From the IMG/VR virus record IMGVR_UViG_2713896899_000008: 6,453 nucleotides of DNA. One strand, given 5' to 3'. Of this stretch, positions 292 through 5,703 are shown piece after piece (within the stretch, counting starts at the first letter, position 1; each line of letters starts with the position of its first letter). The notes below the pieces were generated by a model that did not search any database, was not told where the DNA came from, and was given only the letters and a program-made list of their open reading frames with translations. This DNA is from a virus (Duplodnaviria; Heunggongvirae; Uroviricota; Caudoviricetes). Made by a program: the position numbers and the translations under genes.

Positions 292-418
292 GCCAAATTA
301 ACAATCAGGACTGCGTGAAGTGAAAGAGAAAACATAATTCAAATCTGAATAATTAATCTCAGCACTGTAAATAAAATTTAATCCTTAACAGGAGGGATTC
401 CTGCACCCTCAAAACATC

Positions 419-452
419 AGGAGGCCGCCCGAAAGGGCGGTAATGAAAAATG
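419..452 (+). promoter_or_regulatory. Translation initiation region: AGGAGG (419-424), perfect 6-bp GAAA-tetraloop hairpin (425-440), ATG (450)
   Basis: CCGCCC-GAAA-GGGCGG is a perfect stem-loop placed exactly between a consensus SD and the start codon. Linear SD-ATG spacing is 25 nt; with the hairpin folded it is about 9 nt. Confidence 0.4.
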
Positions 453-857
453 ACTGAATTAACAAAAGAGCAATTAATCGAAGAAGCTAAATTAAAAATA
501 GCGATTGCGAAATGCCACCCCAATTCAGGGGTGGCACGAGTAGAGGGTGAGTTATTCAAAATTGCTCTGGCATCGCTGGAAGCAGAGCCGATAGCGTGGG
601 AATACGGCGAAAACATAATCCTGTTTAATCCTGACACAGTTGAAGCATACGCAAAACGTGCAGAGATAACACCTAAACCTCTATTCACCGCTACACCTGT
701 GCCACTGACACCAGAAGGATTGATTAAAGCAGTGTGTTTCTATGAACAGGTTAAGCGTGAAAATCCGCCAGTCGAAACCGGAGCATGGAAAGACGCTGTT
801 GACTGGGTACTCAAAGAGGCTTGCCAGGCTGTAAACATTGGCATCAAAGGAGAGTGA
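450..857 (+). CDS. Hypothetical phage protein (135 aa)
   Basis: ORF from ATG 450 to TGA 855-857. Its stop lies 1 nt before the next gene's ATG, inside that gene's SD spacer. No family recognised. Confidence 0.6.
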   Translation: MTELTKEQLIEEAKLKIAIAKCHPNSGVARVEGELFKIALASLEAEPIAWEYGENIILFNPDTVEAYAKRAEITPKPLFTATPVPLTPEGLIKAVCFYEQVKRENPPVETGAWKDAVDWVLKEACQAVNIGIKGE

Positions 858-4666: not shown

Positions 4667-4742
4667 GGCCCTTTAGCTCAGTGGTGAGAGCGAGCGACTC
4701 ATAATCGCCAGGTCGCTGGTTCAAATCCAGCAAGGGCCACCA
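4667..4742 (+). tRNA. tRNA with CAU anticodon, ileX/ileZ-like (tRNA-Ile2, lysidine type; Met not excluded by anticodon alone)
   Basis: 76 nt cloverleaf: acceptor GGCCCTT/AAGGGCC, D-stem GCTC/GAGC, anticodon loop CTCATAA, T-loop TTCAAAT, A73, encoded CCA. Overall sequence resembles E. coli ileX. Confidence 0.88.
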
Positions 4743-4743
4743 A

Positions 4744-4820
4744 CCGCCACTAGCTCATCAGGAAAGAGCGTCAACCCTTTAAGTTGAGTGTGCGAGGTTC
4801 GAGTCCCCGGTGGCGGTCCA
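4744..4820 (+). tRNA. Atypical tRNA, anticodon loop CCTTTAA (nominal anticodon UUU, Lys)
   Basis: 77 nt cloverleaf: acceptor CCGCCAC/GTGGCGG (C1:G72), D-stem GCTC/GAGC, anticodon stem TCAAC/GTTGA, T-arm CGAGG-TTCGAGT-CCCCG, U73, encoded CCA. C at position 33 and U73 are unusual for a Lys tRNA. Confidence 0.6.
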
Positions 4821-4822
4821 GT

Positions 4823-4898
<76 letters not shown>

Positions 4899-4901
4899 TA
4901 T

Positions 4902-4976
<75 letters not shown>

Positions 4977-5139: not shown

Positions 5140-5703
5140 TTAGTTTTTATTCGCCGTCCATTTACCACAAATTGGTCTGGAGAAGATTGCCAGAATGGCA
5201 ATAAAGGATATTTCAATTGAAACAGACCAGCATATATGTCCAATCAGTTCGCTCCAGAATTCATAGCCGTTTAGATTCCATAGCCACCCTCTTTCATGGC
5301 CGGGAAGATACGCGGGAAATCTGAAGCCCAGCGCGGGTATTAAAATACCATGCATGACTAATGTAATAAGAATTCCATATACAGCCCCATACCACATGCG
5401 GACTCGTGGAATAAAAACAGACAGGTATATGTATACAAAGGCAAAAATGAAACTAAAAAGCCAATGATAGAGCATAACAGCTCCGGGAATTGTTACTCCC
5501 TGGTAAATGTAATCCAGCGAGTGTGAATTTATTCCCAGAAAACCCAACCAGGCGTCGATATTCATTGCTGGTGGAGAAATTTCTCCGGCCATTCTTGGGG
5601 GCATGTTAGCTTCAGTTCCTGATTTCACCAGAGAGCTGATCGCGCCACCGACCAGTGTTGCCCAAAGTATGATTTTTAGATTTACGCTATTCCATTTACA
5701 CAT
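5140..5703 (-). CDS. DUF1440/YagU-family inner membrane protein (187 aa)
   Basis: Minus-strand ATG at 5703-5701 is preceded by GAGG at 6-nt spacing; stop is TAA (complement of 5140-5142). Product shares blocks with E. coli YagU as recalled (VKSGTEANMPPR, MWYG, MHGILIPALG, SELIGHICWSVSIEI). The 280-aa ORF-track version is rejected as an N-terminal extension. Confidence 0.62.
   Translation of the reverse strand: MCKWNSVNLKIILWATLVGGAISSLVKSGTEANMPPRMAGEISPPAMNIDAWLGFLGINSHSLDYIYQGVTIPGAVMLYHWLFSFIFAFVYIYLSVFIPRVRMWYGAVYGILITLVMHGILIPALGFRFPAYLPGHERGWLWNLNGYEFWSELIGHICWSVSIEISFIAILAIFSRPICGKWTANKN

Follow-up and report, generated by a model that had tools for sequence, protein, structure and literature searches.

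A candidate portable, hairpin-split translation initiation region in lambdoid and Rac-like prophages of Escherichia coli

Positions 419–452 of an Escherichia coli prophage sequence hold a strong SD that is separated from its start codon by a perfect, tetraloop-capped hairpin, and this segment is on balance probably one copy of a portable, hairpin-split translation initiation region of the type found at T4 genes 38 and 25. The sequence analysed, hereafter the window, is the whole 6,453-nt stretch of IMG/VR record IMGVR_UViG_2713896899_000008 (Caudoviricetes), and positions count from its first letter. According to the proposed mechanism, lambdoid and Rac-like E. coli prophages would place this cassette before small early genes of many different kinds. 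AGGAGG (SD2) would be the pairing site of the 30S subunit, and the next 16 nt would fold by themselves into a GNRA-capped stem of very high stability, which would remain closed and be looped out. A start codon 22–25 nt away in the linear sequence would thereby come to lie at an effective distance of 6–9 nt from the SD (9 nt in the window), which is within working range, and the A/U-rich spacer would provide no alternative SD. To our knowledge, the natural hairpin-bridged ribosome binding sites that are usually cited are those of T4 genes 38 and 25 only. Bridging at these two sites was proven by stem mutations, lacZ fusions and DMS probing: in gene 38 the hairpin shortens a 22-nt SD-AUG spacing to 5 nt, and in gene 25 it brings 27 nt down to 11 nt (PMC3014915).

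Genomic setting of the window

The window comes from a lambdoid or Rac-like E. coli prophage, of which it represents the early-right region. It opens with the C-terminus of a DUF977 protein, identified by domain search (1–291), which is followed by an intergenic region (292–449). Beyond this region the gene order is three small ORFs, hok/sok, a DUF968/HNH protein, a RusA-like resolvase, a Q-like antiterminator and four tRNAs. The hok/sok type I toxin-antitoxin locus (1576–1986) is complete, with an Rfam sok match of 115 bits at 1576–1750 and a Hok ORF that ends at 1900, and a canonical terminator with a T-run stands after hok/sok at 1969–1986. The tRNAs, Met(CAT), Lys(TTT), Thr(TGT) and Gly(TCC), are located directly downstream of the Q-like antiterminator gene at 4667–4976. 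In Stx phages the position downstream of the Q-like antiterminator is occupied by tRNAs and toxin genes; in the window an ORF for a 280-aa membrane protein (5140–5982, minus strand) follows the tRNAs in place of a toxin.

Architecture of the SD, hairpin and start codon

On the plus strand SD2 (AGGAGG) occupies positions 419–424 and the ATG start codon positions 450–452. Between them lie hairpin 2 (425–440), which reads CCGCCC-GAAA-GGGCGG with arms at 425–430 and 435–440 and a loop at 431–434, and a 9-nt A/U-rich spacer, TAATGAAAA (441–449), that has no SD potential. Hairpin 2 is composed of six perfect G-C pairs capped by a GNRA tetraloop (GAAA). The linear gap of 25 nt between SD2 and ATG 450 exceeds the working distance of an SD (up to ~15 nt), and with the hairpin looped out the gap would be 9 nt, inside the ~5–11 nt characteristic of split initiation; at normal distance from the start codon the window contains no conventional SD. 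The original prediction had proposed this same arrangement, from AGGAGG at 419–424 through a 6-bp GNRA stem to ATG 450 with a shortening from 25 to about 9 nt, and both coordinates and folding agree with it exactly.

Folding predictions give hairpin 2 an energy of −12.4 kcal/mol in isolation and −15.5 kcal/mol with its flanks (z = −4.2; none of 200 shuffles equally good), the latter value being due to a seventh pair between G424 and U441. The hairpin is present in the MFE as well as the centroid structure of 400–480, and its predicted probability of formation is 0.86–1.0 across 31 different gene contexts. The computed duplex between SD2 and the 16S 3′ end amounts to −10.3 kcal/mol, and that between the window spacer UAAUGAAAA and the anti-SD to merely −0.8 kcal/mol. 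The G-rich 3′ arm of hairpin 2 could pair with the anti-SD at −8.3 kcal/mol, which would require melting the −12.4 kcal/mol stem. SD2 adjoins the stem with zero linker, and G424 is possibly a member of the stem; the closed stem is assumed to be sterically compatible with the SD:anti-SD helix. The rest of SD2 lies outside hairpin 2, unlike the sequestered SD of an RNA thermometer or a riboswitch platform. An ‘insulator’ role, in which the hairpin keeps the SD accessible, was rejected, as the unpaired probability of the SD is similar with the hairpin present, deleted or mutated in one arm (31 contexts).

The start codon belongs to a 135-aa ORF (450–857, plus strand) with the N-terminus MTELTKEQLIEE. 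The ORF matches phrog_660 (E = 6e-49) and is thus a member of a real phage gene family; it has an ead/Ea22-like N-terminus, its function is not assigned, and a Pfam search with it returned no match. Within the spacer an in-frame TGA (444–446) closes the reading frame upstream, so that ATG 450 is the sole possible start of this ORF, and the same start is annotated in relatives, by PGAP in two near-identical prophages. An alternative start with its own SD, the finding that the original prediction had set against its own proposal, is excluded for this gene. ATG 443 was rejected as a start, since it opens a 4-codon ORF merely 2 nt past the stem and is not conserved in relatives, which carry TAGTG, TAAGAA and TAATAA variants. 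A leader peptide overlapping the ATG was similarly rejected: the frame that ends at TGA 451–453 is open from 382 and lacks any ATG, GTG or TTG, and spacer indels in relatives shift it. Inside the 135-aa ORF, 65 nt past its start, there is a further perfect 7-bp hairpin, CCACCCC-AATTCA-GGGGTGG (515–534).

Hairpin 2 resembles a Rho-independent terminator in being a G+C-rich intergenic stem-loop, but differs from one in the lack of a U-tract on either strand. On the plus strand the stem is followed by UAAUGAAAAAUG, and a scan of 400–460 revealed no terminator-like site; on the minus strand it is followed by CCUCCUGAUG, with merely weak alternative pairing. A terminator was therefore rejected as an identity. 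A search of 280–520 against Rfam 15 gave no match at the gathering threshold, the hits below it being chance-level snoRNA with E of 0.16 or worse.

The intergenic module and its two contexts

SD2 and hairpin 2 form the 3′ part of a conserved intergenic module of ~107 nt that is ~90% identical everywhere. In the alignment of loci with differing upstream genes, homology begins at CTGAATAATTAA and ends no more than a few nucleotides from the start codon. This 5′ edge (345–356, plus strand) supplies stops in three frames, TGA 346–348, TAA 350–352 and TAA 354–356. In many relatives (e.g. L005 and L012) CTGAATAATTAA is the left half of a perfect 18-bp palindrome, CTGAAT-AATTAA-ATTCAG, which is imperfect in the window (345–362). 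The palindrome may serve as a protein site or as a weak RNA stem, or be no more than a universal gene end. Upstream of the module, between it and the DUF977 stop, positions 292–343 appear to retain, in frameshifted form, a remnant of the 3′ terminus of an ead/Ea22-like gene, whose intact relatives end in ...LREEEKA* just before the module (e.g. in L048).

The 5′ edge is followed by an A/T-rich spacer (357–390, plus strand; ...CAGCACTGTAAATAAAATTTAATCCTTAACA) that is conserved in the alignment and listings, and a plus-strand scan of these positions detected no sigma-70-like promoter and no terminator-like site. Folding places hairpin 1 next (391–411, plus strand), in which SD1, GGAGGG (391–396), pairs with an anti-SD-like CCCTC (406–410) at −7.2 kcal/mol. 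SD1 forms a stronger duplex with the anti-SD than SD2 does (−13.0 kcal/mol); in the window no start codon follows SD1, which hairpin 1 is predicted to sequester. One variant, L038, keeps hairpin 1 through a register-shifting double change, GAGTG/CACTC.

Sampling of IMG/VR contigs with an anchor outside hairpin 2 revealed two versions of the module. The long version, present in the window and designated context A, comprises GGAGGG without a start codon, hairpin 1 and then ...CATC-AGGAGG-hairpin 2. The large majority of context-A copies are predicted to form hairpin 1. In this version part of SD2 is also predicted to pair with a UCCUU located upstream, at an opening cost of ~3–4 kcal/mol, which weighs against split initiation. 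In the short version, ...TTAAC(C/T)GGAGGTATATCTATG, the first GGAGG acts as the ordinary SD for a gene of 70 aa (phrog_4659) whose start lies 7 nt downstream. Phage ArgO145 and many contigs carry in series the short module, the 70-aa gene and TAATGTC-AGGAGG-hairpin-TAGTTAAATG, and in this context B the SD2-hairpin sequence begins 4 nt past the stop codon of the 70-aa gene. The presence of SD2 and hairpin behind two unrelated upstream sequences, the long module and the end of the 70-aa gene, identifies them as a separable unit.

The position just past a stop codon in context B is also the usual place of 3′ protective stems. The main role of hairpin 2 might accordingly lie in mRNA stability or processing, as a barrier to exonucleases or the mark of a processed end, with a location between SD and AUG that is merely tolerated; translation would then proceed through the A/U-rich spacer, upstream coupling or a long-range or standby use of the SD. 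This explanation is given a limited chance. A stem far more stable than the shortening of a spacer needs is in line with it; in contrast, the window and all context-A copies have no end of a translated cistron nearby, the nearest upstream gene ending at 291.

Distribution of the unit and spacing of its start codons

Of 5,426 complete E. coli genomes, 2,698 gave a blastn match to positions 330–560. The 36-nt segment with SD2 and the hairpin (411–446) is present in 2,625 of the 5,426, at 4,748 places, with up to 8 copies per genome and no annotated feature at any of these places. The carriers include O157 and other Shiga-toxin-producing (STEC) lineages, and the unit is absent from the Rac prophage of K-12. 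Strain EC4115, for instance, has it at 5 places. It occurs in both early operons, located after the replication genes. The original prediction had tied the hairpin to the 135-aa ORF of the window; the hairpin is indeed present there, but as one copy of a widespread portable cassette, an aspect that the prediction had missed. In some prophage contigs (L014, L027, L044 and L050) two copies of the unit are located ~1,060 bp apart in one operon, before different genes. An E. coli-type module together with a DUF7167 gene, at 91–95% identity, was also observed in PP818812.1 (‘Actinobacillus phage vB_Apl-pPE4’; H2, H105 and H136), which would be surprising for a Pasteurellaceae host; the record may be mislabelled or may represent a contaminating E. 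coli phage. A contig scan with the A/T-rich anchor returned chance matches alone, in unrelated AT-rich genomes, and a 14-base viral scan returned mostly chance matches.

A total of 270 copies of the unit were tabulated, of which 256 could be scored and 14 were truncated or frameshifted. In approximately 250 of the 256 scorable copies the start codon of a real ORF is positioned 6–9 nt past the stem, at 6 nt in 65 contigs, 7 nt in 102, 8 nt in ~18 and 9 nt in ~64. Two contigs display an 11-nt spacer with its own GGAG, and in five a remnant mini-ORF comes first, with a new SD located 36 nt further on. Three contigs (L048 12038–12650; also L112 and L113) have neither spacer nor start; an A/T-rich insert that codes an opposite-strand gene adjoins the stem, with the junction exactly at the 3′ base of the stem. 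With few exceptions the 270 copies retain the GGAG or GAGG core of SD2, and in some copies the SD is degenerate (GGGATG) and the hairpin is kept. The retention of the hairpin next to a degenerate SD, before a gene with a separate SD of its own, or with no gene downstream speaks against split initiation and would fit the stability or processing explanation.

The proteins encoded downstream of the unit belong to at least six unrelated N-terminal families, represented by MRKFKIIIETG (DUF7167), MTELTKEQL (the type in the window), MTTLFRKEYPRK, MAELTKWLQ, MQEIKENIRQ and MEITKERLL. The spacers that precede them (TAGTGAA, TAGTTAA, TAAGAA, TAATGA, TAATGAAAA and others) are without SD potential, although a minority of copies has its own GGAG. 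A stability element would leave unexplained why AGGAGG always adjoins the stem and why unrelated SD-less genes all start 6–9 nt beyond it. Among Klebsiella phages, DUF7167 homologues are devoid of the hairpin, and those examined for an alternative hairpin at the same place have none; they carry instead a conventional GGAGG or GGGAG 7–8 nt before the ATG, a distance equal to the effective distance in the E. coli copies if the hairpin is looped out. This normal SD at an equal effective distance is likewise left unexplained by a stability element. The stability role and split initiation are not mutually exclusive. When 2.35 Mb of these prophage loci were scanned for further combinations of SD, G-C hairpin, 4–10 nt and start codon, the only matches were a terminator followed by GTG and one isolated case. 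Thus, with no other plausible site in 2.35 Mb, the arrangement is not a common chance pattern.

Variation in the stem and loop

In an unbiased sample 97 of 106 copies of the stem are fully paired, and ~8% have one mismatch. The pair-preserving variants C426U, C428U, C430U and C438U yield G·U wobble pairs in the sense RNA, where an antisense RNA would hold A·C mismatches. The pair-disrupting variants are CGGCCC (G·G mismatch), CCACCC (A·C mismatch), CCGACC (A·G mismatch) and a mismatched U·U closing pair. Every natural stem variant folds at −10 kcal/mol or better. C-to-U changes exceed G-to-A changes by ~17–18:1 when contigs of the unbiased sample are counted, the lineages not being independent. 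In addition, a compensatory exchange converts G427-C438 to A-U (CCACCC/GGGTGG) in a background otherwise identical to the A·C lineage. This A-U derivative is present in 7 IMG/VR contigs, with an exact match in 30 complete genomes, and the step from A·C to A-U regains ~4 kcal/mol (−10.1 to −14.0). For 428U, 430U and 426U, targeted scans that looked for a compensatory partner detected the G·U state alone. Together the C-to-U bias and the compensatory A-U pair are suggestive of maintenance of the stem, as read from these natural variants. The formal covariation count comprises 96.8% paired cells and one pair changed on both sides, and shuffles were as good in 167 of 500 cases; because the family is shallow the count is underpowered and indistinguishable from shuffled controls. 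The covariation in homologues that the original prediction had put forward as a check is therefore represented by one compensatory pair and by G·U-compatible changes, at a level that shuffling also attains. Its wider proposal of structure-dependent initiation draws partial support from the presence of the unit before at least six unrelated SD-less genes, from the ordinary SD of hairpin-less homologues, from stem changes that mainly keep pairing and from the T4 precedent; the covariation statistics are not significant.

The absence of significant covariation and the occurrence of mismatched variants would fit a unit that has no RNA function and is a young, recombination-spread linker at the gene boundaries of mosaic lambdoid phages, with the palindrome carried along. 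With a ~107-nt module ~90% identical everywhere, conservation alone says little against such a linker, and exchange junctions located right at the edges of the block are what it would produce. A linker of this kind is nevertheless considered rather unlikely. Across 300 dinucleotide-preserving shuffles, the expected number of perfect 6-bp stems that enclose a 4-nt loop and contain 5 or more G/C pairs is 0.12 per window, and that of such stems with a GNRA loop is 0.06. Stem changes biased to C-to-U, which keep pairing in the sense RNA alone (17–18 contigs against 1 with G-to-A), are also at odds with neutrality, as are the compensating U gained by the A·C lineage and the invariance of two loop positions. 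Finally, the downstream genes need some SD and no other is present. In a more elaborate arrangement, considered doubtful here, the whole block would be a mobile gene-start module. Its three-frame stops, decoy SD in hairpin 1, SD2 and GNRA hairpin would be exchanged by recombination and would give new small genes a uniform start, and the hairpin might act as a shared handle for an RNA-binding factor or RNase of phage or host, with up to 8 genes per genome forming a post-transcriptional regulon.

In the loop, position 1 (G) and position 4 (A) are invariant in 37 distinct variants, and positions 2–3 vary (GAAA, GGCA and GUCA). An invariant G and A in a GNRA-type loop on a G-C stem would suit an operator for an RNA-binding protein, either a phage translational repressor of a small regulon or a boxB-like site for N-type antitermination; a repressor bound between SD and AUG would be ideally placed, and up to 8 copies per genome stand before different early genes in both early operons. 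The variation at the two central positions argues, in contrast, against sequence-specific reading of the loop. No boxA-like CGCTCTTA is found upstream, the loop is a tetraloop and not a pentaloop, the position is not promoter-proximal, and the searches yielded neither a candidate protein nor an Rfam match. An operator is consequently regarded as very unlikely. A canonical lambdoid nut site was rejected, on the grounds of the 4-nt loop, an upstream sequence (CACCCTCAAAACATC) without CGCTCTT(T)A, and a location after the replication genes with up to 8 occurrences per genome, sometimes two within ~1 kb.

Comparison with known elements

The unit shares with T4 gene 38 a strong SD that is too far from its start codon (22 nt in T4, 25 nt here) and a stable tetraloop hairpin that fills the gap, leaving an effective distance of 5 and 9 nt, respectively. 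There is no sequence relationship between the two, and the loop of gene 38 is of the UUCG type, that of the unit a GNRA loop. Gene 38 represents one gene at one site in a virulent phage, whereas the unit is a multi-copy cassette that serves many genes in temperate prophages; the function of the former is proven by mutation, and the latter is known from sequence and predicted folding. Similarly to T4 gene 25, the unit in context B is intercistronic and directly past the upstream stop. Close relatives keep the gene 25 hairpin and distant ones lack it, a pattern similar to the difference between E. coli and Klebsiella phages described above. In contrast, gene 25 involves one junction that is vertically inherited, and the unit is found before at least six unrelated genes and behind two upstream sequences.

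Boundary or linker sequences of mosaic lambdoid phages have reportedly been viewed as recombination scars or anchors, with no RNA structure assigned to them. The module resembles them as a short conserved block at gene boundaries between unrelated neighbours, its edges being exchange junctions, and differs from them in carrying three-frame stops, two SDs and two hairpins, so that it appears to supply translation signals. Lambda boxB likewise combines a short G-C stem with a GNRA-like loop in early phage transcripts, but its 5-nt loop, boxA partner, promoter-proximal position and single occurrence per operon do not apply to the unit. The anti-sRNAs of EHEC prophages were rejected as an identity, being located downstream of PR′ and thus elsewhere than the unit (Tree 2014, PMC4104026). 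A literature search for the hairpin 2 sequence did not find it, and the lambdoid and EHEC sRNA literature searched contains no description of such a cassette. The mechanism is known, and the element appears to be undescribed and to be unusual in being portable and very abundant.

Implications

If confirmed, the unit would constitute a third, independent family of hairpin-bridged initiation regions and by far the most abundant one, carried by about half of the complete E. coli genomes and currently unannotated. The natural allelic series of G-C, A·C and A-U on one background constitutes ready-made experimental material. The arrangement bears on the design of insulated synthetic RBS parts, and also on the prediction of start sites, as gene callers that require an SD within ~15 nt would score such starts poorly. 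Confirmation would also establish that the split arrangement can be modular and transferable between genes, a point relevant to the way in which mosaic phages maintain the expression of genes that have just been shuffled.
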